Part shown: piece by piece, positions 1 to 15,213 of the stretch
Layout: every line of letters starts with the position of its first letter
Position numbering within the stretch: position 1 is the stretch's first letter
IMG/VR virus record: IMGVR_UViG_3300045988_159430
Location: 1 to 15,643 of that record
Source of the DNA: a virus
Length of the DNA stretch: 15,643 nt
Reading direction: 5' to 3' (one strand)
The notes under the pieces: generated by a model
Databases searched by the model: none
What the model saw: only the letters and a program-made list of their open reading frames with translations
What the model was told of the DNA's origin: nothing
Translations under genes and position numbers: made by a program

Positions 1-1479
1 ACTCCAGTCATTGAAGAAAGTAATTGGTTTTTCATTTCCACTAGATGTTATCAAAGTAAATGGTTTCAAATATTCTGGAGATATTATAGTTTTAGAAGTA
101 TTAAATATAATACCATTAGATAGATAATTCTCAGCTACATTATTTAATAGAAACTCTACTCTATCAGTTTCTGGATATTTATAAGCCTTGCCAGCATAAA
201 CCATATCTCCTGCATAATCTAGATGATATTCAATAAAATCTGAACTGATTATCTCATTCCAAACATAATCTTTCCAAATAGGAGATATATCAGATTTAAC
301 AGATTGTGTAATATTAATAGATAAATTAATAATACTTGAACTATTCTTTATAACAGATACTCCAATAGTTGCTTTTCTGGAAGATAATCCTGAATTTTCT
401 GCAATGTTCAAACTAATAGTTGCTACACCTTGAGGATTCACAGTTATCTTCTGTCCACTAATCCAACCTACAGGAATGCTAAATACAACATCATCTAAGT
501 TGTTTGAGCCTGTACCAGTTATATTTAATGTAGATGCAGTTCAACTTACTTCATAATTAGTATTAGGAATCATTAAAGATGTTGCAGCTTGTTTAATTGG
601 AACTGTAGCTTCAAGAGTATAACCTCCAGAAGTTGTTGCAGTAACCATTGCACTAAACTCCAAATTATTAGTAGTTTTATTCTCTGGAACAGTTAATACA
701 AAATAGTTATCAACAATATCCTTTTTAATATTACTAGCTTGAGGGCAGGTGACATTAAATGAGGTAATTGTTTCTTCTGCTTTAGTTGTACTTAAATGGA
801 ATTCTTCAGTAACAAAAGCAGATGCTCCATAAGTTCCAGATGAAGGAGTTACTACTAGCTTTAAATCTTCTGGAGTATTACTTTTTTCAATTTTAAAGCC
901 GTAACTATAACTAATAAATTTATTAGTATCATAATAAGCTCCTAATTGGATAGTTCCAATTAAATCTGTATTTCATTGAGTATTAGCTCTTACTGTAAAT
1001 TTAAACTTAATAGAGCAAGAATCCCAATCCAGAACTTCCATATTAACTAAAGCTGTAGCATTAACAACTGCTGCATTTCATTTAATAATATCTGATCTAT
1101 TTAATATATACTCTACTGTATATTCTCCACCAGTATTTGGTACTTTAATGGTGCCATTAGCAGGATAATATCCAGGAGCTTTACTATGTAAATTAATTGG
1201 TAAATCTTCCTCTAATAAAGCAGTAGTAATGCCTCTAGGATAAAAATGAAATACAGTAGAAGAATCAGTAGTTATTGTTGTAGGAGATAAAAATTGTATT
1301 GTACATCCAGAAGTACTAGGCTCTTGTATAGTTACCTCTAAAGGCCCTTCTTCAGTATAATCATCTCCCCAAGCCCAATAATCATATTCTCCAGTAATTC
1401 CCCATCCAGGATTATTCCATTTAACAGGAAAACTCCTTGATGCGTTATATATTCCTAATTTACTTGGTATAAATGCCAT
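1..1479 (-). CDS. Large structural protein with Ig/BACON-like repeats (tail fibre or receptor-binding candidate); C-terminal end runs off the window
   Basis: ATG at 1477-1479. Track ORF 1078..1479 stops at TGA (tca 1078-1080), but I checked the same frame triplet by triplet to position 1 and found no TAA/TAG, only two more in-frame TGAs (973-975, 541-543). The read-through translation contains ...NYEVSWTASTLNITGTG...VGWISGQKITVNPQGVATISLNIAENSGLSSRKATIGVSV..., which resembles BACON/Ig-like repeats. Product call is by eye only. Confidence 0.8.
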
Positions 1480-1481
1480 TT

Positions 1482-1970
1482 TTAAAAGTTTTTAAATACA
1501 TAATAATCTACTTGTCCTTGAAGATCTTTAGTTATAGCATCATCAAGAAGCTCCATATAGTTATTTTCTATATATTCTATAGTATTTGATAATGGATGTT
1601 TACCTTGAATTCCTTGAAGATGTATCTTCCTCCCAATTAAATATGTAAGCTGATCTATTGTTGGTAACTTACCATTATAAGGTCTGGGAATAATTGGCTT
1701 AGTTTTAATCCAACTCTTTATATCATTAAGTGGAGGGAACTTACCAGAATGTCTGCCTTCTTCAACGTATTTCCAATAATCTAATAAACTAACATTAACT
1801 TCATAATCCCCATTTTGGGTCTCAACAATGTAATTTAAACTATTACCTAATAATCCAGTATCATCAGTCCTTGTTTGAACCAATTCCTGTCTATATAAAG
1901 AAATTATGAGTTCTCCTCAACGTCTTAATAACTCATTTAAATTTGGGAAATTTAGTTCTTGAATATTCAT
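1482..1970 (-). CDS. HK97 gp10-like head-tail / neck structural protein
   Basis: ATG 1968-1970, TAA 1482-1484, 162 aa. Track ORF 1482..1883 is started at a TTG and extends upstream through one in-frame TGA (1917-1919, ...LLRRWGELIISLYRQELVQTR...). The motif DTGLLGNSL...LDYWKYVEEGR resembles the HK97 gp10 family signature. Confidence 0.75.
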
Positions 1971-2013
1971 TTTTGTTAAAATATATTAATTTATAGGTTA
2001 GTATCTAAACACA

Positions 2014-2036
2014 AATAGGGAGACTTACTCCCTATT
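2014..2036 (-). terminator. GC-rich hairpin, candidate intrinsic terminator or leader hairpin next to cassette copy A
   Basis: 9-bp stem AATAGGGAG (2014-2022) / CTCCCTATT (2028-2036) with a 5-nt loop. On the minus strand it is followed by TGTGTTT. It lies between the gene ending at 2092 and the gene starting at 1970. Confidence 0.5.
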
Positions 2037-2040
2037 AAGT

Positions 2041-2089
2041 GTCAAGTTTTTTACTCAAATTTAGTAGTTAAAATAAATAAAAACTGACA
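2041..2089. repeat. 49-bp conserved intergenic cassette, copy A
   Basis: GTCAAGTTTTTTACTCAAATTTAGTAGTTAAAATAAATAAAAACTGACA. The first 28 nt are identical to copy B (7706-7754). The first 17 nt and last 15 nt are identical to copy C (15161-15209). The ends form an imperfect inverted repeat (GTCAAGTTTTT / AAAAACTGAC). Confidence 0.85.
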
Positions 2090-2091
2090 TT

Positions 2092-2876
2092 TTAATGTTT
2101 TCGTTTTCATTCTTCAATTTGTCTATTTTCTTCATTAGCTTTATCTATAACATAACAAATTGTATTTAAGAACTCTTTAATTTGCATATCATAAACTTGA
2201 TGCCAATTAAATTTAGTAACCTCACTTACTTTATCTATTCAGATAATTCAGCTTCATTTTTGAGTAAAAGGAGTAACCGTCTCATCTGTATCAGACTCCT
2301 TAGAATCTTTCTCCTTTCTAATTTGTTCTTTGTTTTCTTCAATTTCTTCTTCATCTCTCTTTCCGAAGAGTGAAGGGTACTCAGAGTTGATAGTCGCAAT
2401 AAGTTTACAAAAAAAAACATTATATCTGAAAATACATCAATTGTTAAATGATTATTCAAAAACTCTGCTTCATCCAAAGGATCATAATCTTCTCCATACT
2501 TCTTACCTTCTGGTAATAAAAAGCAAGCAGCTAGATTTGGCATATAATCATCATACTTCTTATAAAAATTCTGGAAGTCTATGTATTGACTTGCAGTCAT
2601 CTTATTAACATTAAAAAAGACTTTATATTCCCTGTCTCCAATAATATATTTAGTTTCTGGAGTTTTAGGTTTATATGTACTCTCTACAAATTTAAGATTG
2701 TTAATTAATTCTTGTAATTTATTCAGCTCCATATTTTGAATTTCTTCTAAAGAAATATCACTAAGTACAGATACCATAGCTAAATTCATATCTAATTCAT
2801 TTTCTCATTCTTTTCTAATTACATCCAATAGTTTTCTATAATGAGCTAAATTCATTTCATTCCAAGATTTTATCAT
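2092..2876 (-). CDS. Phage protein needing a -1 frame change at a T9 run (tail-assembly-chaperone-like G/GT architecture, or a homopolymer indel); about 261 aa if fused
   Basis: ATG 2874-2876 lies 1 nt after the terL TAG. In-frame TGA at 2805-2807 (...VIRKEWENELD...). Frame 0 is the track ORF 2235..2789 and ends at TAG 2235-2237. After the T9 run (2409-2417) frame 0 turns R/L-rich and uses rare codons. The -1 frame reads CKLIATINSEYPSLFGKRDEEEIEENKEQIRKEKDSK...FNWHQVYDMQIKEFLNTICYVIDKANEENRQIEEWKRKH, is open to TAA 2092-2094, and contains 4 in-frame TGAs (2254, 2248, 2239, 2107). That frame has no start codon of its own: a TAA lies 15 codons upstream of the T run. Confidence 0.6.
2409..2417 (-). 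promoter_or_regulatory. T9 homopolymer (A9 on the plus strand): candidate -1 ribosomal frameshift or transcriptional slippage site
   Basis: Minus strand reads ATG TTT TTT TTT GTA. Re-reading the last T gives TGT AAA CTT..., which is the frame with protein-like composition. A T10 run would fuse the two frames directly. Confidence 0.5.
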
Positions 2877-2877
2877 A

Positions 2878-4125
2878 CTATTTAAATTTAATATTATAAT
2901 GTCCTTTAGTTGTATTTAATGAGTCATAGGCTAGCATTAATGAAATTACTGTATCATCATTAAATCCAGATGGAGCATTATAACTAATATTTCCAGTTTT
3001 TGGATTATATGAAGCTTCATATAGTCTTAACTCATTTAAAAGTTTATCATCTTTTAATAATCCTATCTTTTCATTCTCCAAAGCAGCTTGAAGCTTATTA
3101 ACTATATCTGCCTTACTCTTATTAGTAGTTAAGAATCGTATAATCCTGATTTTCGGATTCTTCTGAACTAACATATCATAGAAGACACTACCAATTGAGT
3201 TTTGTTCAACTTGCACAATCTTTATAAATCCTTGATACTCAGTTAGTATATTTGTTAATAAATCAACTTGCTCTGTTGGAGTTTTATCGTTAAAATACTT
3301 TATAAAGACCATTTGCCCAGATTCATTTAAAGCAGTAACACAAGTATAGTCTTTACCACTCCCAGTAGCCCAGTCTATTCCTATATAAAGACTCTGATAA
3401 TCTGGTTTTTTCTCAATTATGCAATTAGCTATATTATTAAATAAACATCCATCATCATCTGCAAATTCCCCTAAGTATTCGGTTCTAAATTTATTTTTTG
3501 AGGTTGTAAGTCGATACATCTCTAACTTCTCTTTATCTAAAAGCATAGATGTATCTTCTAAAGCTCAATCAAATGATTTATAGAACTTGTCATATTTCGG
3601 ATCTAACCCTTTAGTAAAGCAGTCATAAAAGAAACCCTCTCGGAACCTTGGAGTACTAATAATTAATATTGGAGCAGACCACACATCAGTAGTAGGTTTA
3701 ATAATTTCAAATACTTCATCTTTTAAGTAAGCAGCCTCATCTAATACAAGTAATCCACTTACAGAGAATCCTCGTAACGAATCCATTTGTTCTCCAGATC
3801 TAAATAATATAGAACTGCCATTATTAAACTCTAATTCAAGCAAAGTTTCATTCTTACGTTTAAGAATATCTGCTTCAGCTATAGCATTAACTATTTCTTT
3901 AAACACTTTTCTTGATTGCCCAAGAGTAGGTTCTACTATACAATTGACTGTTTTTGGATAGTTAATTGCAAATCGTAATAATTCATTTTCAGCTAAGAAA
4001 GATTTACCTACTTGTCGTTTAGCTTTAATTGTAAATATCCTTCCAGATCTATAAGCATCTGCCATAGCTATATGAACCTTATATTGGTACATAAATGGCC
4101 TATATCCTTTATATATCCTTGTCAT
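2878..4125 (-). CDS. terL: Terminase large subunit
   Basis: Track ORFs 3565..4125 and 2878..3546 are in the same frame, joined by a single TGA (3565-3567): ...KFYKSFD-W-ALEDTSMLLDKEK.... The N-terminal ATPase has Walker A KAKRQVGKS and Walker B LLVLDEAA. The C-terminal RNaseH-like nuclease begins around LYIGIDWATGSGKDYT. 415 aa, ends at TAG 2878-2880. Confidence 0.9.
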
Positions 4126-4561
4126 TTATAATAGGATCTCCAAATTTAAATTGGCATTCATTATTTTGAATATTAACTTGAATTTCTGGTTGATTTAATC
4201 CAAACATAGAATTTATTGTTTTAATAACCTCAGTAGCAGATCTTACATCATTTTTACTAATAGCAATATCCAACAATGTTTCCAATCTTGTTAATTGTAT
4301 ATGTCTTAAATTCTTTATAAGATTATCGTTTTTATCTGCAATAATCTTATAAGCTTCTCTAATATATTTAGCAGCAGTAGTTTGCCCAACTCCATATTTA
4401 GTTTGAAGTTCCTCACTTACTTTATTTCTGGACCACCCTTTATTAAATAATCTTGCTGCATAAAGATATTTAGTTTTTTGTTCGTCTATTTGATCCTCTT
4501 TTACTTCTTCCTTTTTCGGTCTCCCTATTTTCTTCGGCAGTTCCTGATTCTTTACTTTCAT
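4109..4561 (-). CDS. terS: Terminase small subunit candidate (HTH-containing)
   Basis: 150-aa ORF immediately upstream of terL with a 17-nt overlap. Basic N-terminus followed by an HTH-like segment (YLYAARLFNKGWSRNKVSEELQTKYGVGQTTAAKYIREAYK). Ends at TAA. The call rests on position plus the HTH. Confidence 0.65.
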   Translation of the reverse strand: MKVKNQELPKKIGRPKKEEVKEDQIDEQKTKYLYAARLFNKGWSRNKVSEELQTKYGVGQTTAAKYIREAYKIIADKNDNLIKNLRHIQLTRLETLLDIAISKNDVRSATEVIKTINSMFGLNQPEIQVNIQNNECQFKFGDPIINDKDI

Positions 4562-4805
4562 TTTCCTTTAGTTTTTCTTGATATTCAAAATAGATTGGGG
4601 CAATCCTCTTTATAAGATTAAGTATACAAGTAGCACAAGCTACGCTCATTCTATATTCTTGTTCAATTAAATATTCATAAATCTCTTTAAGCTTAATTAC
4701 ATCCTGCTTTTGTACATTTCTGCAATAATTAGACTTAGTTGCAGTTACAAATCTATCTTCAAATCCTCTTAAATATTTAAACTGCTCTTCTGTTAATTGT
4801 TTCAT
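4470..4805 (-). CDS. Hypothetical protein
   Basis: 111-aa ORF, ATG 4803-4805, TAA 4470-4472. The last 92 nt overlap the terS start in a different frame. The N-terminal 80 aa look like a normal globular protein. No recognisable motif. Confidence 0.6.
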   Translation of the reverse strand: MKQLTEEQFKYLRGFEDRFVTATKSNYCRNVQKQDVIKLKEIYEYLIEQEYRMSVACATCILNLIKRIAPIYFEYQEKLKENESKESGTAEENRETEKGRSKRGSNRRTKN

Positions 4806-4807
4806 AA

Positions 4808-4882
4808 TTAGCGCTTTTTAGTATAAGTAAATATAGAAATTAACTTTCCATTCTTGTAGTGATAAATAACTTCTGTTTCCAT
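4808..4882 (-). CDS. Very small ORF (24 aa), uncertain
   Basis: ATG 4880-4882 lies 12 nt after the upstream stop. TAA 4808-4810 lies 2 nt before the next ATG (4805). Peptide METEVIYHYKNGKLISIFTYTKKR. Supported only by the tight spacing. Confidence 0.2.
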   Translation of the reverse strand: METEVIYHYKNGKLISIFTYTKKR

Positions 4883-4894
4883 AAAATATAATTT

Positions 4895-5224
4895 TTAATT
4901 AATAAGTTTGTATATAACATCTATCAGCTTAGTAGATGCATCTTTTAATAATATCATAATATCTTTAATAATTGGAGTCATAAATGCTAATAGTGCAATA
5001 TACCCAACCATTAAAATTGAAAATTGACTTGTAATAAGAATATATATTAATCCAATTCACCAAGTCATACATAAACTGCAATCTAAAGGTTTTAGTCTTC
5101 AATCTTCTTTATAAGGTATACCTTTAAATAGTCTTTTTCAAATACTGTGTTTAAAACTATCCAAAGCCCCAGATAAATCAATTATAAAGACTATTATTAC
5201 TGCTATTATAAATAATTCTAACAT
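4895..5224 (-). CDS. Small integral membrane protein (about 3 TM segments)
   Basis: Not in the ORF track because of 3 in-frame TGAs (5138-5140, 5099-5101, 5057-5059). ATG 5222-5224, TAA 4895-4897, 109 aa: MLELFIIAVIIVFIIDLSGALDSFKHSIWKRLFKGIPYKEDWRLKPLDCSLCMTWWIGLIYILITSQFSILMVGYIALLAFMTPIIKD.... The C-x2-C...WW membrane motif resembles DUF1360-type proteins (by eye). Confidence 0.7.
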
Positions 5225-5463
5225 AATCTCTCTCTTATTTGTTTAATAAATCTTTGAATTGTAGTATGACTAATTCCTAATATTCTTCCCACTTCTCTAT
5301 AACTGTGATATTCAGCATATAATATGATTACTGTCTTATCTGCCTTATTAAGCTCAAGTCATTTTGGATATATACTTAATAGTCTATCATCCATATTTGT
5401 AAACATACTATAGTCTATTTCATACTCAGTAAGTAAATCGTCAATATTAATCTTCCGTTTCAT
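5218..5463 (-). CDS. Sigma-70 region 4-like protein (C-terminal half of an ECF-type sigma factor, as a separate ORF)
   Basis: Not in the ORF track (in-frame TGA 5359-5361). ATG 5461-5463 is immediately preceded by an in-frame TAA. Ends at TAG 5218-5220, 81 aa: MKRKINIDDLLTEYEIDYSMFTNMDDRLLSIYPKWLELNKADKTVIILYAEYHSYREVGRILGISHTTIQRFIKQIRERLC. This matches the region 4 pattern L--L----r-v--L-----s--EIa--lgis--TV--r---a---L. Confidence 0.65.
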
Positions 5464-5755
5464 TTAATCAATCCTCCAATTCGTCATTTTGTTGTTCAAG
5501 TGGTTCTTTAACAATCTCATAATATTTCTTATAGGTATAGTAATATCTACTTGTTTTACTAAACCAATAATTCTTAAATAATCTTGTAATCCAAAATTTC
5601 AATTCATTTTTGCTATCAAGCTGATTTAATTTTGGATTTGAATACTCTAGTATTTCTACAAAAATCATTTGAACACAGTCATCATCTGCACCAAATTTTT
5701 GCTTAAGTTCCATAATAAATGGATAGTACTTTTCTACAATTTCGTTATTACTCAT
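5447..5755 (-). CDS. Sigma-70 region 2-like protein (N-terminal half of an ECF-type sigma factor, as a separate ORF)
   Basis: Track ORF 5468..5755 ends at TGA 5468-5470. Under TGA=Trp it extends 7 codons (WLNETED) to TAA 5447-5449. ...GADDDCVQMIFVEILEYSNPKLNQLDSKNELKFWITRLFKNYWFSKTSRYY... fits the ECF region 2 pattern (D-vQ--F--l ... -Wl--i--N-----R). Confidence 0.6.
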
Positions 5756-6242
5756 ATGTTCACATATATCCTCCTGCTGTTTTTCGCTGCCCTTTAAGAA
5801 CCTTTACAATATTTCTAGATTGTATATTTAGTTCTCTCTCAGCATCTATTGCTGAATCCCATCTTTTAATAACTATTCCATTTAGTAATTGCAGTATTGG
5901 TTTCTTATGACTATATCCAGCTCGCAGATTATGAGTTCCATAATTATTATTATAATTATAAGTACACCATTCTAAATTACTTACATTATTATTTGATTTA
6001 TTTTCATCCTTATGATTTATACAAGGATAGTTATTCGGATTAGATATAAAAGTTTCAGCTACTAATCTATGTATATAACACTTCTTTTTCAAATTTTTAT
6101 TATATAATGTTACTGTAAAGTACCCATTAGTTTTTACTTGAGGTTTTAACCTCTTTGGAACTGATGCTCTTAAACTTCATATTGAGCCATCAGTTCCAAT
6201 TTGGTAGTTTTCAAAATTAAGTATTCTTTTATAGGCTATCAT
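5748..6242 (-). CDS. HNH homing endonuclease (NUMOD4-like N-terminus, HNH core, IENR1/NUMOD1-like C-terminal HTH)
   Basis: Track ORF 5760..6092 is TTG-started and TGA-ended. The same frame extends upstream through TGA 6177-6179 to ATG 6240-6242 (MIAYKRILNFENYQIGTDGSIWSLRASVPKRLKPQVKTNGYFTVTLYNKN...). It extends downstream through TGA 5760-5762 to TAA 5748-5750 (...RKTAGGYM-W-TYE). HNH core: HRLVAETFISNPNNYPCINHKDENKSNNNVSNLEWCT. Confidence 0.9.
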
Positions 6243-6666
6243 TTGCTATATAATTACTAAATTCTGTATTTACATCTATCTTAATGGCTTTCTTTAAAGA
6301 CAACTCTGTTTTTAATGAATAGCCATAAGTTCCTCCAAAATCTGTTGTAGAACAACCATATTTCATAGAATCCTTTATAAAGGCTTGTTTTATATCTTTA
6401 AATATATATACTCCATCATCAAATATTATTACTAATATAGAATTATTTCTTGATAGCATATCAAATTTATCCCTATTAATAATAGTGGTTGGATATTTAT
6501 TAGAATTAAATCTTCTCCTTTTAACTTCAATTATATAATCAATTCCATTCCAATTAAATGTTCCATCATATCTGGAGTAATCGTCTTTACATCATTCTAT
6601 GTCTATATTAAATTTCTCTTTAAATAGATTCTTTGTAAAGACTAAGCTTCTTATATCTGTTTTCAT
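6229..6666 (-). CDS. Hypothetical protein, possible PD-(D/E)XK-fold nuclease
   Basis: Track ORF 6229..6459 extends upstream in frame through TGA 6592-6594 to ATG 6664-6666, which forms a TAATG overlap with the upstream gene. 145 aa. ...SRYDGTFNWNGIDYIIEVKRRR... gives a D-x14-E-x-K arrangement. The function call is weak. Confidence 0.6.
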
Positions 6667-6905
6667 TATTTTATATTATTAATTTTAAGTGTTAAATCAC
6701 AATATTCTTCATATAAATTAGATACTTCTTCACTTGCTGGATTAATCCACATTACTGAATCTAATTTATGTTTTAATTCTGCTCTTTCTAATCTTAATTC
6801 AAATGTTTTATGTTGTCTTTCCTGATAGACTTCATTTACTCTAAAACCTGCAACAATTGAAGATGCAATTAAAAGACCAACTAAAATTTTATTTATTTTT
6901 TTCAT
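6666..6905 (-). CDS. Small protein with an N-terminal signal-anchor/TM segment; first gene of the leftward operon
   Basis: 79-aa ORF, ATG 6903-6905, TAA 6666-6668. N-terminus MKKINKILVGLLIASSIVAGF. It sits about 40 nt downstream of a consensus promoter. Confidence 0.7.
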   Translation of the reverse strand: MKKINKILVGLLIASSIVAGFRVNEVYQERQHKTFELRLERAELKHKLDSVMWINPASEEVSNLYEEYCDLTLKINNIK

Positions 6906-6942
6906 AATTTTATTATTTATAAGTTAATACTTGTTTATTATT

Positions 6943-7000
6943 GTACTACAAAGATAATACATTTTTATTCAATTTCCAAATTTTTTAGGTATTATTTTTA
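6943..7000 (-). repeat. Left arm of a 58-bp inverted repeat (promoter duplication)
   Basis: The reverse complement TAAAAATAATACCTAAAAAATTTGGAAATTGAATAAAAATGTATTATCTTTGTAGTAC aligns without gaps to 7590-7647, with about 48 of 58 identical. The last 17 nt are nearly perfect. Confidence 0.8.
6949..6980 (-). promoter_or_regulatory. Bacteroidota-type promoter driving the leftward operon
   Basis: Minus strand: TTTG (6980-6977), a 20-nt spacer, then TATCTTTG (6956-6949). This matches the Bacteroides -33 TTTG / -7 TAnnTTTG consensus. Confidence 0.6.
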
Positions 7001-7056
7001 TTATTTTCAAAAAAATATTACTATTTGTATTTTTATTATATATTAATAAAAACAAT

Positions 7057-7542
7057 ATGATTTACGTAATTAAATTAACTAAAACGAATTTTATTAAAGT
7101 TGGTTACACTACTAATATAAGTGGCAGACTAACTGCTTATAAAAATACTATTCCAAATGAGATGATAGAATTTTTTATAGCAAAAGAAGGAAATAGAGAT
7201 GATGAAAATTATTATAGAGATAAATATAGAGCATATAAAACTAAGAGTAATTCAGAATGGTTAAAACTTCCAGATGAATTAATTGTAGAGCTATTAGCAG
7301 ATTTTAAGAGTGCAAATAATATAAAAATAAATAAACAAAGCAAAAAAGAATGATATAATGAGAATATAGATAAATTAGTAGAATTGTGCTTATCTGGAGT
7401 ATCATTAAATAGAGCTGCAATTCAATTAAATGCACTAAATTGAGACTGAATAAAATATGCTAATCAAAGATACGAAAAAGAGAATGGCAAAAAATTAACA
7501 AAACTTTGGGTAAGAAAAATCAAGAAAAGTTTTGCAGAATAA
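7057..7542 (+). CDS. T5orf172-domain (GIY-YIG superfamily) protein with a C-terminal HTH-like domain
   Basis: Track ORF 7057..7353 ends at TGA. The same frame continues through TGAs at 7351-7353, 7441-7443 and 7447-7449 to TAA 7540-7542, 161 aa. N-terminus: IYVIKLTKTNFIKVGYTTNISGRLTAYKNT...SEWLKLPDE (T5orf172 pattern). C-terminus: WYNENIDKLVELCLSGVSLNRAAIQLNALNWDWIKYANQRYEKENGKKLTKLWVRKIKKSFAE. Confidence 0.8.
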
Positions 7543-7561
7543 AAATTTATTATTATATTTG
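7531..7561 (+). promoter_or_regulatory. Bacteroidota-type promoter (P1)
   Basis: TTTG 7531-7534, a 19-nt spacer, then TATATTTG 7554-7561. It overlaps the 3' end of the T5orf172 gene. Confidence 0.55.
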
Positions 7562-7589
7562 TAGTGTAAAGAAAAAAATAATTTTTTAT

Positions 7590-7647
7590 TAAAAATAATA
7601 CCCGAATTATTTGGAAATTTAATTTTTATGTATTATCTTTGTAGTAT
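7590..7647 (+). repeat. Right arm of the 58-bp inverted repeat (promoter duplication)
   Basis: TAAAAATAATACCCGAATTATTTGGAAATTTAATTTTTATGTATTATCTTTGTAGTAT is the inverted copy of 6943-7000. Confidence 0.8.
7610..7641 (+). promoter_or_regulatory. Bacteroidota-type promoter (P2), rightward twin of the leftward promoter
   Basis: TTTG 7610-7613, a 20-nt spacer, then TATCTTTG 7634-7641. Confidence 0.6.
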
Positions 7648-7669
7648 GAAACTAAAACTAATAATTCTA

Positions 7670-7695
7670 GGCAGGTGAAAATCCTGCCACTTTTT
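7670..7695 (+). terminator. Intrinsic terminator-like hairpin with T tract
   Basis: GGCAGG (7670-7675), loop TGAAAAT, CCTGCC (7683-7688), then AC TTTTT (7691-7695). It lies only about 30 nt downstream of the predicted P2 start site. Confidence 0.6.
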
Positions 7696-7705
7696 GAATC
7701 TTACT

Positions 7706-7754
7706 GTCAAGTTTTTTACTCAAATTTAGTAGTAAGAAAATAAAAATATTGACA
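7706..7754. repeat. 49-bp conserved intergenic cassette, copy B
   Basis: GTCAAGTTTTTTACTCAAATTTAGTAGTAAGAAAATAAAAATATTGACA. Same absolute orientation as copies A and C. It ends 30 nt before the helicase ATG (7785). Confidence 0.85.
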
Positions 7755-7784
7755 AAAACTTTAACTATTTAAATTATTAAAATT

Positions 7785-9506
7785 ATGAAAACATATTTAA
7801 ACAATTTGATTAATGAGTTGCCAACTAACTGTTTATTTGATAAAGGAAAAGTTGGATGTGGAGGAACTTCAATGGCAATTGAATGTAATAAGCCTTATGT
7901 TATTTGTGTTCCATTTACTAGCTTAGTTGAAAATAAACTTCAACAATATCCAAATGAAAGACGTACTGAGAAGATATTTGGAGTTTATGCTGGAGTTACT
8001 ATTAAAGAGATTAAAGATTACGTAGAGAGTGTTAAATGTCCTAAAATTATTGTTACATATAACTCACTTCCAAAAGTTATTTCTGCAGTTAATACTAAAG
8101 AATATAGTTTATTAGTAGATGAATATCATATACTATTTAATCAGTATAGCTTTAGAAAGGATGCTATTAAACCTGTTTTAGAGAACTATGAATTATTTAA
8201 AGATTTTACATTTATGACTGCTACTCCTCTTGAAGAAGAGTTTGTATTAGATGAATTAAAAGATTTAGAATTAGTAAAGCAAGAATGGGATGATGTTATT
8301 GAAACCAAGGTACAAGCCGTTAAATGTAAGAATGTTGAAGCTTCAACTATTAAATTAATTAATGCTGTTCTTAATAATCAAGTCGAAGGTAATGTTTATA
8401 TATTTGTAAATTCTGTAGACTTTATAAAGAATCTTATTCAGAAAGCTAAACTTACAGAAGAGAATACCAGAGTTATATATTCCAAAAACAATAAAACCAA
8501 ATTATCAATTCATAATTCTACAGTATTAGATGAACCTAAGAAAATAAATTTATTAACTTCTACAGTATTTGAAGGTTCTGATATTTATGATGAAAATGGA
8601 AGAATTGTAGTAGTAAGTGATGCTCAAAAAGCACAAACTCTTCTTGACATCTCAACTTCAATCCAACAGATTGCTGGCAGAATTAGAAATAGTAAATATT
8701 TAAACTGGATAACTCATCTTTACTCAGCAACAAGATATGCAGATATTAGTTATGAAGACTTTAAAAAGAAGAATATCCAGAATATTGAGGAAACTAAGAT
8801 TGCTGTAGATGCTTACAATGCAATGCCTGAAGTTGCAAGAAAGAAACTTAAAGAATTTACATCTGATACTTATATCCAAGTAAATGATGATTTTACATTT
8901 ACATTTGATCCAAATATGGCTAAGGTAGATATTTTTAACTTTAAAGTGACAAGAGGTTTATATTCTATTAGAACGAATCTTAATAAAGAATATATAAAGA
9001 ACGGATTTAAAAAAGTAGTAGAATGTGAAGACAACTCTATTAAGATTGATTTTGAATCTGATAATAAACCATTTAAAGAACTAATTAAAGAAGTTAGAAC
9101 AGAATGGGAAAATAAATTTAAACTGAATACTCCACTCTTAAATGATGCTATTATTAAATATCCTTGGTTACCAGAAGCTATTAGTAAATTAGGATTCGAA
9201 AAGATGGCAAGCTTGAAATATTGCATTTCGGATATTAAAGATGCTCTATTAAAGAAATCAAATAAAAGTGCAGATAATAAAGCAGCTAAGAAGTTAAATC
9301 AATCAATTACTCTTGGAATGTGGTATTCTAACGCTGATATTAAAAAGTTTGTTAAAGAAGCTTATGAAATTAGTGATATTACTATTACTCCAAAAGCAAC
9401 AGAAATTGATAAATATTATGAAGTTAAAAAATGCCAGAAAAGAGTAAATGGTAAACAAACTGAAGGTTATGTAATTATTAATAAAAAGTTTGTATTTAAT
9501 AAATAA
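7785..9506 (+). CDS. Superfamily 2 (DExH-type) helicase, replication/early module
   Basis: 573-aa intact ORF ending at TAA. Motif I GKVGCGGTS, motif II LLVDEYH, motif III MTATP, motif VI QQIAGRIRN. No in-frame TGA; it has 5 TGG Trp codons. Confidence 0.85.
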   Translation: MKTYLNNLINELPTNCLFDKGKVGCGGTSMAIECNKPYVICVPFTSLVENKLQQYPNERRTEKIFGVYAGVTIKEIKDYVESVKCPKIIVTYNSLPKVISAVNTKEYSLLVDEYHILFNQYSFRKDAIKPVLENYELFKDFTFMTATPLEEEFVLDELKDLELVKQEWDDVIETKVQAVKCKNVEASTIKLINAVLNNQVEGNVYIFVNSVDFIKNLIQKAKLTEENTRVIYSKNNKTKLSIHNSTVLDEPKKINLLTSTVFEGSDIYDENGRIVVVSDAQKAQTLLDISTSIQQIAGRIRNSKYLNWITHLYSATRYADISYEDFKKKNIQNIEETKIAVDAYNAMPEVARKKLKEFTSDTYIQVNDDFTFTFDPNMAKVDIFNFKVTRGLYSIRTNLNKEYIKNGFKKVVECEDNSIKIDFESDNKPFKELIKEVRTEWENKFKLNTPLLNDAIIKYPWLPEAISKLGFEKMASLKYCISDIKDALLKKSNKSADNKAAKKLNQSITLGMWYSNADIKKFVKEAYEISDITITPKATEIDKYYEVKKCQKRVNGKQTEGYVIINKKFVFNK

Positions 9507-9520
9507 AAATATTATATTTG
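9489..9520 (+). promoter_or_regulatory. Bacteroidota-type promoter (P3) inside the 3' end of the helicase gene
   Basis: TTTG 9489-9492, a 20-nt spacer, then TATATTTG 9513-9520. The next ATG (9525) is only 4 nt downstream, which implies a leaderless or near-leaderless mRNA. Confidence 0.55.
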
Positions 9521-9524
9521 TGAT

Positions 9525-9686
9525 ATGGAAGGAGATATTAAAGAAACAATTAAACAAACAGAAGAGTATATTAAAGAATTGGATAAATGAATACTTGAGT
9601 GTAAAGAAGCTACTAAAAGATTTGGTGATATTATAGATAAAGTATTAAAAAATAAAGATTATATGTTTATTTCTAAATTTGATTAA
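9525..9686 (+). CDS. Small hypothetical protein (53 aa)
   Basis: ATG 9525, in-frame TGA 9588-9590, TAA 9684-9686: MEGDIKETIKQTEEYIKELDKWILECKEATKRFGDIIDKVLKNKDYMFISKFD. Absent from the ORF track because of the TGA. Followed 2 nt later by the next ATG. Confidence 0.5.
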
Positions 9687-9688
9687 TT

Positions 9689-9829
9689 ATGGATGATTAT
9701 TTATTTAAAAAGCTTGAAGAACTAGAATACAGAATAGTTCAACTAGAAAACCAGAATAGAGGTTTAGTTTGGGAAGAAGTAGAAGAAATGCCAAAACCAG
9801 AAATTCCTAATGTAACATATACTGACTAA
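9689..9829 (+). CDS. Small hypothetical protein (46 aa)
   Basis: ATG 9689, TAA 9827-9829: MDDYLFKKLEELEYRIVQLENQNRGLVWEEVEEMPKPEIPNVTYTD. Coiled-coil-like. Tightly packed, with 1 nt before the next ATG. Confidence 0.5.
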   Translation: MDDYLFKKLEELEYRIVQLENQNRGLVWEEVEEMPKPEIPNVTYTD

Positions 9830-9830
9830 T

Positions 9831-9974
9831 ATGAAATATCAAACCTATAAAGTATGCATAAATGGAGTGTATTATGTATATGTAATACCAGAAAATAGTA
9901 GGTTTTTAGTGGACTTACAAACAGGAGATTTAATACCTAAAGAAGATGATAAATTATTTGAAATGATGGAATAA
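9831..9974 (+). CDS. Small hypothetical protein (47 aa)
   Basis: ATG 9831, TAA 9972-9974: MKYQTYKVCINGVYYVYVIPENSRFLVDLQTGDLIPKEDDKLFEMME. Last gene before the convergent terminator. Confidence 0.5.
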   Translation: MKYQTYKVCINGVYYVYVIPENSRFLVDLQTGDLIPKEDDKLFEMME

Positions 9975-9979
9975 ATGAA

Positions 9980-10005
9980 AATAGGAGGGCATAAACCCTC
10001 CTATT
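9980..10005. terminator. Bidirectional intrinsic terminator between convergent modules
   Basis: 10-bp stem AATAGGAGGG (9980-9989) / CCCTCCTATT (9996-10005) with loop CATAAA. T-rich tracts follow on both strands (TTCTGTTT on plus, TTTTCATTT on minus). It sits between the plus-strand stop at 9974 and the minus-strand stop at 10011. Confidence 0.7.
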
Positions 10006-10010
10006 TCTGT

Positions 10011-10580
10011 TTAAGCGTATTTTCAAATGTATCCTTTAGATGTTTGCTTTAATCCACTACATACTCTACTAATGGCTCCTCTATCAGTTCCTACTGCATT
10101 AGCCGCTTCAGTACAGCTTTCATATTCCTTAATAAAGTTTCCCTCTAAATCATATTGTAAAACCTTTTTACATCTTTTCTTATTATGAATTTCATTACTA
10201 ATCTTCCAAGGCAAACTATATAAATGTTTCTTACCTTTATTTGATTCTGATAGTTTCTTTCTTCATTCTGTAGAAAATTTTATTCCATAGTTGCCACCTT
10301 CACCTCCTGGCTTCAAGTTTAAACACATTGGATCTACTTCCCATTTATCTCCTATTAATTCATACTCCTTTTTAGATAATTCATCTGAATCATTACAGAA
10401 TGCAATTATTTCTTTTTTATATGCATTAGGAAATCTTTTATAGTAGTTCTTAATAATTTTACCAGAACCTTTATATGGATCTTTATATGGGTCTTTTCCT
10501 TTATAAATACGCTTACCAATGTAATATTTTCCTCTCAATGAGCCAGCAGTTAAATAAATTTTATAACAATAGTAAAACAT
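10011..10580 (-). CDS. GIY-YIG homing endonuclease (GIY-YIG core, NUMOD3-like linker, IENR1/NUMOD1-like HTH)
   Basis: Track ORFs 10263..10580 and 10023..10214 are in the same frame, joined by TGA 10263-10265 (...GIKFSTE-W-RKKLSESNKGKKHLYSLPWK...). The second ORF ends at TGA 10023-10025 and continues to TAA 10011-10013 (...TSKGYI-W-KYA). Core: YCYKIY...GKYYIGKR...EYELIG...CLNLKPGGEGG. 189 aa. TAATG overlap with the endolysin stop. Confidence 0.9.
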
Positions 10581-11032
10581 TATATAATTGTAAATTTCTG
10601 TCTTCTCTGCAAACCCTCTTTATTCTTCAGTCCTAAATGAATTCAACTAGCTATTCCATTTCTAGGTTTCTCATAAATAAGTTGATCAAAATCATACTTT
10701 TCAATAGCTTCAGTAATCCAAACCTGAAATTCTTTCATTTGGCCGTTACTTGGAATTATATCTGCTGCATATCCTGTTAGATGGGCAGATGTCAAAGATC
10801 CTCCTACAGCTTTATTAAGCTCATTACATCTATAACCTGAATTCACACTTATTGCTGGATTCCCCAACCGATTAACATCACAATACTCTGCCCAATCACT
10901 TCTTAATGGGTCTAAAAGTTTCTCGACTAACTCTATAAGGTGTTCAGTAATCTCTTTATTTGGAGTATTATCTATCTTCTTAATAGAAGCTGTATCAGAT
11001 CTTGTTAATTCACTAATAGTAAAATATTTCAT
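10580..11032 (-). CDS. Endolysin, peptidase M15 family (zinc D-Ala-D-Ala carboxypeptidase / L-Ala-D-Glu peptidase-like)
   Basis: Track ORF 10643..11032 ends at TGA 10643-10645 and continues to TAA 10580-10582 (...PRNGIAS-W-IHLGLKNKEGLQRRQKFTII). Motifs SGYRCNELNKAVGGSLTSAHLTGYAADI are typical of M15 peptidases. 150 aa. Confidence 0.9.
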
Positions 11033-11193
11033 TATTTAATAATATCTTTAAGCATAGTATAACGGTAAAATAAATGACATCCTGCACCAAGTGCTATGAG
11101 TACTAATGTAATCCAAAATGGAATTACTTTTACCATTAAAAATACTAAGATTATAATTACTATTGCTATTAAATATTTCATCCAATATTTCAT
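11032..11193 (-). CDS. Holin candidate (53 aa, two TM segments)
   Basis: ATG 11191-11193 (alternative ATG 11179-11181). TAA 11032-11034 forms a TAATG overlap with the endolysin start. MKYWMKYLIAIVIIILVFLMVKVIPFWITLVLIALGAGCHLFYRYTMLKDIIK. Too short for the ORF track. The call rests on position and topology only. Confidence 0.6.
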   Translation of the reverse strand: MKYWMKYLIAIVIIILVFLMVKVIPFWITLVLIALGAGCHLFYRYTMLKDIIK

Positions 11194-11196
11194 AAC

Positions 11197-11850
11197 TTAT
11201 TTATTTAAAATTATACTTACTTTAATTCCTGCATCTCTTAGTTTTACTCAAGTATCAACTGGCATCTCATTATCACAATAAGATAAGCCTAAAATTCCAA
11301 TATCTCTATCTTCTGATTTTAAATAGAATATTGCAATCTTATTAACATCATTAGATTTAAATGAATAATACATTCTTCTATCTAATTCCTTTATATCTTC
11401 AACATCTCCAAATCATCCTCCTTTTTTAGATGTTTCCAATATAAATAAATAATCAGATAATAGGAAGTCTTTATAGTGACTTGAAACTGGAGCAACTCCA
11501 GGTTCTGTTTCTTCACTATTCATAATTCCATAAGTGAATGGTAATCCTCCTAATCCTGAAGTGCCATTATGATACTCAATAACTCAAGCTCTATCTGCAT
11601 TCGTATCATTTAAAAGGTCTTTAAGGATATATCTAACCTTAAGATCCGCTTCTTGTCGTATTACTTGATTAGTATTATGAACTGTTTCTATATAACTTAC
11701 AACTTTATCATATATTATTCCTGGATTAGTACTTATAATTATTACATAAGAAATAAATATAAATCCAAATCCACCTTTAATTATTTTCCACAGTCCATAT
11801 TTATCTACTCATTCTAATACCTTTCCAAACCAGTTTAATTTATTTTCCAT
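11197..11850 (-). CDS. Membrane-anchored protein of unknown function, first gene of the lysis cluster
   Basis: Absent from the ORF track: 4 in-frame TGAs (11809-11811, 11584-11586, 11413-11415, 11248-11250). I translated every codon from ATG 11848-11850 to TAA 11197-11199, 217 aa: MENKLNWFGKVLEWVDKYGLWKIIKGGFGFIFISYVIIISTNPG...DRAWVIEYHNGTSGLGGLPFTYG...KKGGWFGDVEDIKELD...MPVDTWVKLRDAGIKVSIILNK. One N-terminal TM segment. Confidence 0.7.
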
Positions 11851-12275
11851 TACATATTATCAGAACAAGTACCCAGAGTGTTGTCTACAGCTAAATCAAC
11901 TCTAACAAATACTCCAGTACAAATATCTTTGAACTTCTGATAAAATGGAGTAAAAATTAAAGGATAAGAAATATCAACTTCTGGATATTGGTTATTAAAT
12001 CGGTTAATTATATTAGTTAATGCTAATATTCCAGCTGATTGCTCTTCAAGCTGATTATTATCAGTCTCATCCCATCTTGCTATAAAATAGAGATTTAAAG
12101 AGTAAGTAATAGTATCCTCATCCATATTAAATGTATTTGGAGTTATATAAAATACATTATATTCAATAGTTGGGATACTATTAAGTTCATATATATCCTT
12201 ACTTCCTACAAAATTAATATTGGGTTCTTCAAGAGCACAAGCTTTTAAATTGTTTATTAATTCAAAATACGTCAT
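11850..12275 (-). CDS. Hypothetical structural (neck/tail-completion?) protein
   Basis: Track ORF 11850..12377 overlaps the upstream gene by about 100 nt. The internal ATG 12273-12275 (MTYFELINNLK...) lies 1 nt after the upstream TAA and is the more likely start. 141 aa, ends at TAA 11850-11852. Confidence 0.65.
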   Translation of the reverse strand: MTYFELINNLKACALEEPNINFVGSKDIYELNSIPTIEYNVFYITPNTFNMDEDTITYSLNLYFIARWDETDNNQLEEQSAGILALTNIINRFNNQYPEVDISYPLIFTPFYQKFKDICTGVFVRVDLAVDNTLGTCSDNM

Positions 12276-12276
12276 T

Positions 12277-12954
12277 TTACTTACTCTTTTTATTGTTATC
12301 ACTTGAAGGGAAATCATAAGCTCTTTGCAGAGGACCTTCACAAGAATTATATCTCCAACCTTTACCTCTAGCTCCACCTAACCAAATAGTGCAAGATGAA
12401 CTTGAATACATATTTGGATACATATCTTTAAGAGGTTTATAAGAATACAATTCAGGAAAATCATTATAATATGTAATTACCCAATTTTGCAATCTAGTTT
12501 TAAAGAAATCTGCTTTATCTCTATAATACTTCTTAATAAGATTAACTTGATTAATATCAGAAGTTAAATCTTTCTCATCATCAGTCCTCATAACCCCAAA
12601 ATTACTCAGCTTAAATGAGATGGGTATAGTAATCTCACTTAATACTTGATAAAGTAAATAAGGCTGAATATAGTAATCTAGCAATTCTTTATATCTATGA
12701 TTTTCTGGGTCATCTATTGAAGTAGGATCATAAATAGGAGGTTCTATTGGATGAACTGGTTTATTTGGATCTTTTCAATCAATTACTAATTTCTGAATCT
12801 TTTCTAAGAGCTTAGTTCCAATTAATGACTGAAGCTCAATATCTTGTGCAAGTTTAATTGCTGACTGAAGATATTTACCAGAAACATTATTGTCTAAATT
12901 GGATTCTGATTTTATATAATCTTCAGATATTAATAGTACATTTCTATATTCCAT
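12277..12954 (-). CDS. Head-tail connector / adaptor-like protein (gp6-like N-terminus)
   Basis: Track ORF 12277..12684 is TTG-started and extends upstream through TGA 12775-12777 to ATG 12952-12954: MEYRNVLLISEDYIKSESNLDNNVSGKYLQSAIKLAQDIELQSLIGTKLLEKIQKLVIDWKDPNKP.... This N-terminal pattern resembles head-tail connector proteins. 225 aa, ends at TAA. Confidence 0.7.
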
Positions 12955-13597
12955 AATAATATTTATAATTTTTGCAGGGTTTATTTTTTCTACAAGATCT
13001 AGATATACTAGAAGAATCTACATTATTCTTCTCTCCAGCTTCCTTAGCTGATTTATACTCACAAATAAAATTACCATCTAAATCATACTTATATACTTTT
13101 TTGCACTGACGTTCTGAAATTAGTTGTTTTTCTTTATCTGAGAGTTTCATACCTTTATTTCAAGGAGTTTTGCCTAATCTTGCCTCCCTCATTTTACGCT
13201 TGCTTTCATCTGAATGCTGTTTACCATAAAATGAGTTATTTTCTCCTGATCTTATAATTCTAAGACTATCTTTATAATCTTGTGAAAAAGAATATCCACA
13301 AGTACCGTCTCCTCCATCAGTTAAATTATACCCATATTTTGGATTTCTAGTATTATACTTATAAATCAGAATCTTTTCTAAAGTCTTAGCACAAGCTTCT
13401 GGAAGATTATCTCTAATTATAATATGCTCAAAATTATCTCAACCATATTTTTTAATTGCTCTGCTAAAATAAAGATTATTCTTGTAACCTTGACCTTTAG
13501 TTCCCCATCTATTATTTAAAGTAAGTGATGTTATTCCAAAATATAATTTATTATCAGCTATATTCTTATGGCAGTACACTGTATAATTATTCAACAT
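12944..13597 (-). CDS. GIY-YIG homing endonuclease inserted between the portal and connector genes
   Basis: Track ORF 12944..13150 is only the C-terminal HTH. The same frame continues upstream through TGAs 13160-13162 and 13439-13441 to ATG 13595-13597. 217 aa: MLNNYTVYCHKNIADNKLYFGITSLTLNNRWGTKGQGYKNNLYFSRAIKKYG-W-DNFEHIIIRDNLPEACAKTLEKILIYKYNTRNPKYGYNLTDGGDG...ENNSFYGKQHSDESKRKMREARLGKTP-W-NKGMKLSDKEK.... Ends at TAG 12944-12946. Confidence 0.9.
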
Positions 13598-14678: not shown

Positions 14679-15057
14679 AACTTACGTATGTATTAGGTTT
14701 GTCGTATTGATAATTATTATTCTCATAATCTCCAATTCTTATTAATCCTGTTCCCAATATAGGTATTGGTTTACCAGCAACTAATATCTGAGTACCATTA
14801 GTAAGAGTATTATTATATGTAACCAGAATAACTGGATTGCCATATAACTCTGATCTAAATGGATTGTTTACATCAACTATAACTTGAAATTTATTTGGAT
14901 TAGTAAATAAAATATATTGATATTCACCGTCTCTCATTCCTTCTTGAAGTGTAATATCAAACTTATAGTAGATATTCTCAGAATAATTCTGATTTTCAAG
15001 ATTAAATGTATAAACTTCTTTAGTAGTTGTATTTTGCATTAATAAAGTATAATTCAT
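14665..15057 (-). CDS. Hypothetical protein upstream of the portal gene
   Basis: 130-aa intact ORF, ATG 15055-15057, TAA 14665-14667, with a 14-nt overlap with the portal start. First gene downstream of cassette copy C. No recognisable motif. Confidence 0.7.
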   Translation of the reverse strand: MNYTLLMQNTTTKEVYTFNLENQNYSENIYYKFDITLQEGMRDGEYQYILFTNPNKFQVIVDVNNPFRSELYGNPVILVTYNNTLTNGTQILVAGKPIPILGTGLIRIGDYENNNYQYDKPNTYVSYERK

Positions 15058-15132
15058 ATTTTACAGCAATTTACATTAGTTTTACATATCTTTTTCTTAA
15101 AATATAAACCAATTTACTAATGTATTAAAATA

Positions 15133-15160
15133 ATTAAAGGAGACCTAAGCCTCCTTTAAT
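15133..15160 (-). terminator. GC-containing hairpin abutting cassette copy C (candidate terminator or leader hairpin)
   Basis: 10-bp stem ATTAAAGGAG (15133-15142) / CTCCTTTAAT (15151-15160) with an 8-nt loop. On the minus strand it is followed by TTATTTTAAT. Confidence 0.5.
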
Positions 15161-15209
15161 GTCAAGTTTTTTACTCACTCAAAGTACTAAGAAAAAATAA
15201 AAACTGACA
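15161..15209. repeat. 49-bp conserved intergenic cassette, copy C
   Basis: GTCAAGTTTTTTACTCACTCAAAGTACTAAGAAAAAATAAAAACTGACA. The 17-nt 5' block and 15-nt 3' block are identical to copy A, and the centre diverges. Confidence 0.85.
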
Positions 15210-15213
15210 AAAA

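Follow-up and report, generated by a model that had tools for sequence, protein, structure and literature searches.

The 15,643-nt stretch of viral DNA analysed here (positions 1 to 15,643 of IMG/VR record IMGVR_UViG_3300045988_159430; 27.8% G+C), hereafter the window, carries three copies of an intergenic cassette of about 50 bp, which raises the question of what reads them and whether they are read as DNA or as RNA. From the window and its relatives, we found that the cassette is an AT-rich near-palindrome present in 4-5 copies per genome at the transcription-unit junctions of a widespread ~30-kb phage clade, and we tentatively propose from its sequence that it may serve as a promoter-type DNA recognition site for a phage transcription factor. 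The 17-mer GTCAAGTTTTTTACTCA at the start of the cassette occurs exactly three times in the window, at 2041, 7706 and 15161, always on the plus strand, with no further match at up to three mismatches, and none of 200 dinucleotide shuffles reached three matches (shuffle mean 0.12). The three copies are genuine, being far above chance expectation. The initial annotation had described three 49-bp copies sharing their first 17 nt, with A and B identical over the first 28 nt and A and C over the last 15 nt, all of which we reproduced exactly. From GTCAAG to TGACA the unit spans 49 bp, and a conserved leading T extends it to 50 bp. On the plus strand, copy A (TGTCAAG...CTGACA) lies at 2040-2089, copy B (TGTCAAG...TTGACA) at 7705-7754 and copy C (TGTCAAG...CTGACA) at 15160-15209. 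The reverse complement of copy A, which covariance model R1 scores at 74.6 bits on the minus strand, is co-directional with the flanking minus-strand genes; copy B is placed 30 nt 5' of the ATG of a 573-aa helicase-like gene, and copy C 4 nt past the stop of the open reading frame (ORF) at 15214-15642. With TGA read as sense, the minus-strand ORF at 2092-2451 stops (2092-2094) 2 nt from copy A, and the minus-strand stop codon next to copy C is at 15214-15216. The flanks of A, B and C are unrelated to one another, which argues against a local duplication dragging genes along, the origin that the initial annotation had named as the one that would explain the similarity away.

Relatives were collected by an exact 17-mer scan of IMG/VR, which gave ~40 contigs (complete ones ~29-32 kb), and by TerL- and portal-based look-ups; 23 Logan/ENA contigs were also read, and the phage was present in 119 listed assembly-collection blocks, mostly as 30-32-kb contigs; it is abundant in the sample of contig NODE_67 of ENA ERZ505314 (~324x coverage). 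This search of related contigs, which had been recommended at the outset, revealed further copies at four fixed sites and sometimes at a fifth. Four co-oriented copies are present in every genome: D, which is outside the window, comes first, followed after 8.5 kb by A, after a further 5.6 kb by B and after another 7.2 kb by C. The 17-mer is identical at the three window sites and at four sites per genome, and is retained down to genomes ~72-80% identical. The expected positional bias was also evident: the copies are only intergenic, at transcription-unit junctions, usually with a terminator adjacent, and at A, C, E and the flipped A the cassette starts 1-5 nt past a stop codon. The cassettes had been said to occupy, with the divergent promoter region, the only sizeable gaps in the window; they are indeed confined to gaps, but others exist at 4806-4894 and 9975-10010. 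The fifth copy, E, is inverted and occurs in three genomes (L068, L071 and L072); the helicase-like gene stops 2 nt ahead of it and the next ATG comes 20 nt after it, at a spot where the window has a host-type promoter match. The sense of E relative to the short opposite operon is that of A-D relative to the main gene array. In four genomes (L036, L054, L065 and L078), the site A cassette is flipped between unchanged flanks. At site D the hairpin stands on the other side and is followed by a partial second cassette. In L040 (2976-3110), the site D hairpin is a 44-nt AT-rich structure to the right, CACTACTATATAAG...CTTACATAGTAGTG, and the partial second cassette, TGTCAGAAATTTTACTCACTTTAG, overlaps the stop codon of a 777-aa gene. 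A more distant relative (L083; 43% TerL identity), with the standard code and Bacteroidota-type promoters, lacks gap, terminator and cassette alike at the junction equivalent to A, so cassette and terminator were gained in this clade. A degenerate core pattern run against GTDB genomes found a real cassette in none of the 120 loci among the matches listed; these are chance matches and are uninformative on hosts. The term module boundary, used in the initial annotation, holds for transcription units and not for recombination: identity change-points are not enriched at A and appear only sporadically, in few genomes, at B and C, the two sites that adjoin variable genes and homing endonucleases. 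We conclude that the cassette is clade-wide and functionally constrained.

Among 26-30 distinct variants, the near-invariant parts of the cassette are TGT, T5-ACTCA, GTA, an ATAAAAA-like run and ACA. The pentamer following ACTCA is hypervariable, with ~11 versions, and separates the conserved block from GTA, and the arm able to pair with the conserved TGTCAAG-T6-ACTCA block is freely variable. The termini are inverted repeats, as previously stated, and the terminal hexamers come as matched pairs (TGTCAA/TTGACA, TGTCTA/TAGACA and TGTAAC/GTTACA); the imperfect pair TGTCAAG/CTGACA is also common, some hybrids occur, and the types are mixed inside single genomes. As read off the alignment, the gap from the end of the terminal heptamer or hexamer to nGTA is 16 nt for all three terminus types, and every variant carries TGTAAC, TGTCAAC or TGTCAAG, a T-tract, these 16 nt and nGTA. 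Measured between centres, the inverted TGT...ACA ends are separated by ~43 bp, a stretch that contains T- and A-tracts. An AATTT/CTTTT dimorphism (2058-2062, 7723-7727 and orthologues) shows both states at each of A, B and D, and once at C, and this independent recurrence shows gene conversion among the copies. In the AATTT state the gene-sense strand contains a perfect host-type -7 box, TAAATTTG, and in the CTTTT state it reads TAAAAGTG and the hairpin is lengthened to 20 bp. In L077 and L079, where A and B have lost the outer TGACA, pairing shifts to AAGTTTTTTT/AAAAAAACTT. Neither Rfam (E-value mode) nor ARAGORN gave a match at the cassettes; the sole Rfam match, a weak and sub-threshold small nucleolar RNA, is inside a gene.

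The hairpins noted earlier to the left of the copies are 4 (A), 17 (B) and 0 nt (C) away, and all three score as intrinsic terminators, each oriented with its local genes. Hairpin A (2014-2036, minus strand) has 9 bp followed by TGTGTTT, hairpin B (7670-7688, plus strand) is followed by ACTTTTTG and lies directly downstream of a host-type promoter, and hairpin C (15133-15160, minus strand) has 12 bp followed by TATTTTAAT. A convergent intrinsic terminator without a cassette (9978-10007, minus strand, in the gap 9975-10010) is a negative control, and a further good terminator, F, which follows the gene next after the major capsid protein, also has no cassette. A promoter-like box, TATATTTT, occurs seven times on the coding strand in 27.7 kb of contig 097310, and three of these boxes stand just past terminators A, C and F (the F box at G097310 26197), ~20-21 nt past the T-run and 7-32 nt before an ATG. 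The box at 1978-1985 (minus strand) is 54 nt past cassette A and precedes the ATG of gene 1970-1482 by 7 nt, and the one at 15099-15106 (minus strand) is 53 nt past cassette C, downstream of terminator C. The distance from cassette to box is 53-55 nt at A, in both orientations and with different hairpins, and at C; in L077, where hairpin A is deleted and the cassette kept, it is 25 nt. Since the boxes follow A, C and the cassette-less F, the cassette is not required for transcription restart, and the idea that it is itself the restart promoter after terminators was rejected. The anatomy, conservation pattern and positions of the cassette are demonstrated features, as are the terminators. The T-run of the terminator also seems to serve as the upstream element of the TATATTTT promoter-like box; mRNAs from these boxes would be nearly leaderless, and the boxes are candidates for a class of late promoters. 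Past the box that separates terminator C from gene 15057-14665, there is a one-codon ORF (ATG TAA; 15074-15079, minus strand), and three TGTAAA repeats with a 10-13 nt pitch stand ahead of the real start codon of this gene.

In 27.7 kb of contig 097310 (genome 30.9 kb), almost every gene belongs to a single co-directional array of ~27 kb, which extends from a host-type promoter at 6949-6980 round to the convergent terminator at 9978-10007. A, D and C are inside the array and B is upstream of its head, all four in the same sense relative to it. The primary-sigma promoter of Bacteroidota has TAnnTTTG at -7 and TTTG near -33 (PMC7366714). In the window, matches to this consensus (TTTG-N19-20-TAnnTTTG) are found only at 6949-6980 (minus strand, heading the leftward array), 7531-7561 (plus strand), 7610-7641 (plus strand, rightward, TTTG-N20-TATCTTTG) and 9489-9520 (plus strand, at the position of the inverted copy E in the three genomes that have it), and all four are intergenic and face genes. 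The poor fit of the cassette to the host-type consensus, noticed in the initial annotation, was borne out: TTTG-N19-21-TAnnTTTG was not found within the cassette, the minus-strand TAAATTTG has a TTTG 24 nt off and only at B, and TAAATTTG is replaced by TAAAAGTG in orthologous copies. A sigma-70 consensus scan of the window was uninformative, as it returned fewer promoter-like sites than shuffles, and at the cassettes it gave only TTGACA-17-AATTAT at B.

A candidate reader of the cassette is encoded by two overlapping ORFs at 5218-5755 (minus strand), which jointly resemble an extracytoplasmic function (ECF) sigma factor. The joined product of 5447-5755 and 5218-5463 matches TIGR02937 (sigma70-ECF) over its full length with E=8e-10, below the curated cut-off, and the Bacteroidota ECF subfamily TIGR02985 (Sig70_bacteroi1) with E=4e-5, and the C-terminal ORF 5218-5463 alone, an 81-aa helix-turn-helix (HTH) protein, passes Pfam Sigma70_r4_2 at 26.5 bits. 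PDB sequence searches with both halves gave no significant sigma match. The two ORFs overlap by 17 nt in different frames. All clade members and the distant relative L083 (7762-8085 / 8042-8344) retain this split, so it is probably a genuine two-piece sigma factor or a programmed frameshift, not an error. As the host-type matches are confined to 6949-7641 and 9489-9520 while an ECF-like sigma is encoded, some other signal must serve this sigma.

We suggest that the cassette would be a clade-specific DNA signal, a ~50-bp AT-rich quasi-palindrome that punctuates the phage transcription units and may be read sequence-specifically by a phage-encoded factor, the likeliest being the split ECF-type sigma, through a promoter-type site nested inside the inverted repeat. 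ECF promoters generally consist of AAC with a T-tract, a spacer of N16-17 and a CGT-like element, as in TGAAAC-N16-CGTA for B. subtilis SigW and TGTAAC-N17-CGAC for SigX. The strand shown in the initial annotation, here called the read strand, comprises a -35-like TGTCAAG/TGTAAC with a T-tract, exactly 16 nt, a -10-like nGTA and then A-rich sequence of low conservation. Conservation from -35 to -10 with variability further downstream is what a promoter on this strand would show, and base pairing alone would not give it; the lack of an RNAalifold consensus together with modest z-scores argues against a purely structural RNA role. The 30 nt from B to a start codon and the 20 nt from E in the relatives also favour a promoter. 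At B, the order is host-type promoter, terminator, cassette, 30 nt and helicase-like ATG, and the rightward block could consist of sigma-dependent 'middle' genes. At A, C and D, the read strand would oppose the late genes just upstream of terminators, where only insulation, occlusion or antisense RNA is possible, and the genes downstream of A and C carry their own promoter-like restart boxes (T-run, ~20 nt, TATATTTT, ATG). We infer the reading by a sigma or HTH protein, a transcription start inside the cassette and all the timing from these sequence features.

A promoter for the phage's own sigma factor was among the roles first proposed, and it gains from the resemblance of 5218-5755 to a split ECF sigma and from the ECF-like read strand. 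Several observations weigh against it. Only at B and in the flipped A copies does the ECF-like strand point towards a gene; at A, C, D and E it is antisense. On the gene-oriented strand, one can read TGTCAR-N17-18-TAC(T/A)AA, but this putative -35 falls in the variable arm, the best-conserved block falls past the -10, and the terminator comes 0-4 nt on at A and C. The -10-like nGTA has no C to match the canonical ECF CGT, and most copies carry AAG in place of AAC. The recognition-helix alleles of sigma region 4 (QRF, ARC and ARV) show no co-variation with the terminal hexamer types, whose mixing inside single genomes points the same way. Finally, a promoter predicts neither the matched inverted termini nor the flip of the whole cassette at A, and terminator F restarts without a cassette.

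The matched arms could instead be meaningful in RNA. The array-sense transcript is predicted to fold into a 15-20 bp AU/GU-rich hairpin past the stop codon, which might act in RNase III-type processing or stability, or in nut/put-like read-through, where the signal would stand just before terminators A and C for late transcription crossing the 27-kb array. We consider such an RNA-level element possible but rather unlikely. Its sense is suitable, since A, D, C, and E in its own operon, are co-oriented with local transcription and B with the array it heads; the starts 1-5 nt past stop codons agree with it; and the order of stop, cassette, terminator and next gene at A and C resembles the cro-nutR-tR1-cII order of lambda. 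Across 26 variants the array-sense strand folds better, averaging -10.8 kcal/mol as against -6.0; its stems span 15-20 bp (-7 to -18 kcal/mol) and make use of three conserved U·G pairs, and those of the other strand are 11-12 bp long. The transition mismatches on the array-sense strand are all G·U (61 G·U cells versus 0 A·C cells), 88% of cells are paired as against 46-58% with slid partners, the terminal hexamers are matched as CAA/TTG, CTA/TAG and AAC/GTT, and the stem of L077 and L079 re-registered despite the loss of the outer TGACA. However, RNAalifold found no consensus structure on either strand, and single-sequence z-scores are modest (-0.8 to -3.3; -1.9 to -2.8 for the three window copies in the array sense). 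The G·U bias rests on three columns only, and in the covariation check proposed initially the signal is weak: both sides change in only 2 of 16 pairs, the score equals that of the -1 slid control and the stem is mostly invariant. One arm is conserved in sequence while its partner is variable, and the template-switch process of 'quasipalindrome correction' can yield matched arms without selection. Host-type consensus scans found no promoter transcribing B in the array sense, and in the four genomes with the flipped A the transcript carries a weaker hairpin with the complementary loop. For the RNase III-type site of the initial annotation, the 15-20 bp stems on the strand opposite to the annotated one are in its favour, and the modest z-scores, the missing consensus and the wrong sense of B and the flipped A are not. 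Pfam/PHROG scans of the window proteins turned up no N-, Q- or NusG-like protein. It is doubtful, in our view, that the cassette forms a new read-through (antitermination) RNA, namely an AU/GU-rich hairpin with a conserved UGAGUAAAAA arm, repeated along the ~27-kb array before terminators, which would pass late transcription of a TGA-recoded, Bacteroidota-promoter phage through early-stopping terminators.

The flip at site A and the constant distance to the TATATTTT box bring in another DNA-level explanation, an orientation-independent operator, roadblock or upstream activating sequence, in which a phage HTH protein would hold the inverted TGT...ACA ends of bent A-tract-rich DNA and modulate the adjacent terminator or a weak promoter. 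The ends, ~43 bp apart with T- and A-tracts between them, would suit such a complex, its function would be compatible with the flip, the 53-55 nt from the cassette end to TATATTTT at A (both orientations) and C would be accounted for, and the 81-aa HTH protein (5218-5463) and other small early proteins are possible partners. We nevertheless judge it improbable. If half-sites were read, no arm matching would be needed, yet the arms match, with arm types mixed per genome; the interior is asymmetric and conserved; the spacing is broken in L077 (25 nt) and different at D, E and B; the restart box is also present at the cassette-less terminator F; and the common orientation of A-D is left unaccounted for.

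The same variability could also mark a selfish or neutral quasi-palindromic repeat, similar to miniature inverted-repeat transposable elements (MITE) or repetitive extragenic palindromes (REP), which would be homogenised by gene conversion, with any regulation incidental. Such a repeat would have spread to a few permissive spots near stops and hairpins, and could act as a short homology patch for module exchange, like the promoter-early stem-loop (PeSL) cassettes discussed below. The TG...CA-type terminal inverted repeats, the presence or absence of E, the partial second copy at D and the flip at A are as expected, as are the exchange among copies that the dimorphism at A, B, D and C shows, the lineage-specific gain seen against L083, and the variable genes and homing endonucleases beside B and C. 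On the other hand, no target-site duplication is visible and the A-E flanks have no common duplicated bases, no transposase-like ORF was seen in ~27.7 kb of the 30.9-kb genome, 50 bp is unusually short, and A shows no enrichment of identity breakpoints. All genomes examined, including those of ~72-80% identity, have only 4-5 copies, which occupy fixed orthologous sites, and this points to retention rather than turnover. As direct repeats around essential genes are costly, their retention suggests function. We give this origin little weight.

Four universal copies on one strand with 5.6-8.5 kb spacing, in a phage that encodes several HNH/GIY-YIG nucleases, would also fit a strand-specific DNA signal outside transcription, for site-specific nicks (which occur in T5 or phiKMV-like phages), replication or packaging. 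This seems highly improbable, as E and the flipped A violate the single-strand rule, no nuclease is linked to the site, and a strictly intergenic, terminator-adjacent placement would be unnecessary for such signals. We discounted a likeness of ACTCACT to T7/T3 promoters, because the phage encodes no single-subunit RNA polymerase and its large proteins are tail-like.

The genome that carries the cassettes is itself unusual. TGA is a sense codon in the window; readthrough joins fragments into longer products, among them TerL (2878-4125) and a 493-aa tail protein, and TGA occurs where Trp is expected, such as in GYMWTYE and GYIWKYA at the C-termini of homing endonucleases. TGA as Trp is seen in early and late genes alike (e.g. 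2878-4125, 1-1479, 5748-6242 and 7057-7542), with ~30 in-frame TGAs. The window and 10 related loci that span most of the genome yielded no tRNA gene, suppressor or otherwise. No Bacteroidota host is known to use TGA as Trp, though the early promoters of the phage fit the Bacteroidota consensus. Pfam/PHROG scans recognised genes for TerL, portal, endolysin, two GIY-YIG endonucleases, one HNH endonuclease and T5orf172. Compared with GenBank phages by megablast, the whole window gave no match, and TerL has <30% identity to any cultured phage; by these comparisons, no cultured relative exists. Next to cassette B, a 70-nt inverted duplication of the promoter region (6934-7003 / 7587-7656; 80% complementary), which contains the promoter match at 7610-7641, brackets the T5orf172 gene (7057-7542). 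This gene is missing from many relatives (e.g. L025 and L210), and elsewhere 51/62-aa or 59-aa ORFs take its place, making the locus an insertion hot spot adjoining B. Free-standing GIY-YIG/HNH homing endonuclease genes (10011-10580, 12944-13606 and 5748-6242, minus strand) are cleanly absent from many relatives and explain most alignment breaks between related genomes. After TerL, the overlapping ORFs 2092-2451 / 2235-2876 (minus strand), in different frames and with the same layout in L083 (11321-11980 / 11845-12129), look like a programmed frameshift of a tail-assembly chaperone. An early 145-aa protein (6229-6666, minus strand) matches no Pfam/PHROG family, and its D...E-x-K motif (YDGTF...IIEVKRRR) suggests a PD-(D/E)XK nuclease.

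Repeated intergenic signals are the chief handle on gene regulation in uncultivated phages, and this clade is common, occurring as 30-32-kb contigs in many public gut-type assemblies. It also combines three oddities: TGA as Trp, Bacteroidota-type early promoters and an ECF-like sigma in two ORFs. If the cassette is the target of this sigma, it would define a phage ECF sigma promoter along with unusual gene-opposing promoters; an RNA element would instead amount to a new signal for processing or antitermination. Under either reading it is a compact, testable 50-bp part for which natural mutants already exist, namely the variants with matched arms, the A copies that are flipped and L077, in which the hairpin is deleted.

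None of the three roles proposed in the initial annotation (a phage-sigma promoter, an RNase III-type site and a PeSL-type cassette) is established, and comparison with known systems gives partial likenesses. MITE and REP elements and the cassette share TG...CA inverted termini, an AT-rich interior, positions after stops, both orientations and, here, one presence/absence site; the cassette differs in having no target-site duplication or partner transposase/RAYT, in its ~50 bp and very low copy number, and in its stable orthologous sites. The RNase III sites of T7 are likewise repeated, similar intergenic hairpins right after stops, whose stems have a bulge or internal loop, whereas the predicted cassette stems are AU/GU-rich, 11-20 bp long and marginally stable, with no consensus fold and not all in the proper sense. 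Like lambda nut and HK022 put, the cassette at A and C would be a repeated cis element transcribed before terminators that separate early from later genes. It has no boxA/boxB or put-like sequence or fold, B is past its terminator in the operon sense, and D and E are without a nearby downstream terminator. With ECF promoters such as those of B. subtilis SigX and SigW, the cassette shares TGTAAC/TGTCAAG with a T-tract, a fixed 16 nt and nGTA, in a genome encoding an ECF-like sigma; in contrast to them, its -10 is without C, the whole spacer is conserved, four of the five sites face no gene, and there is no region-4 co-variation.

The closest functional parallel is with the PeSL cassettes of T4-type phages (PMC2839356, PMC4122927). 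In PeSLs, a strong early promoter of the host sigma-70 type invariably faces the downstream gene, whereas the cassette has no host consensus and its promoter-like strand is gene-facing only at B; and PeSLs number in the dozens in hyperplastic regions, whereas the cassette has 4-5 copies at fixed core-gene junctions of an unrelated ~30-kb phage. The attached stem-loop is a terminator-like hairpin at A, B and C and a long AT-rich hairpin at D; it is absent at E and lost at A in L077. Conversion among copies is evident, and variable ORFs and homing endonucleases adjoin B and C, yet change-points are not enriched at A. Membership, as first suggested, is thus contradicted by the missing host-type promoter, by the lack of breakpoint enrichment at A and by a phage that is not T4-type. 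The proposed likeness in function fares better, in the shared sequence of stop codon, AT-rich cassette, stem-loop terminator and gene. Both are short repeated intergenic composites that run from an upstream stop through an AT-rich segment to the next ATG, with a stem-loop terminator attached, intragenomic copies that can recombine and variable genes beside some of them. Judged by these features, the cassette is an analogue of the PeSL class rather than one of its members.

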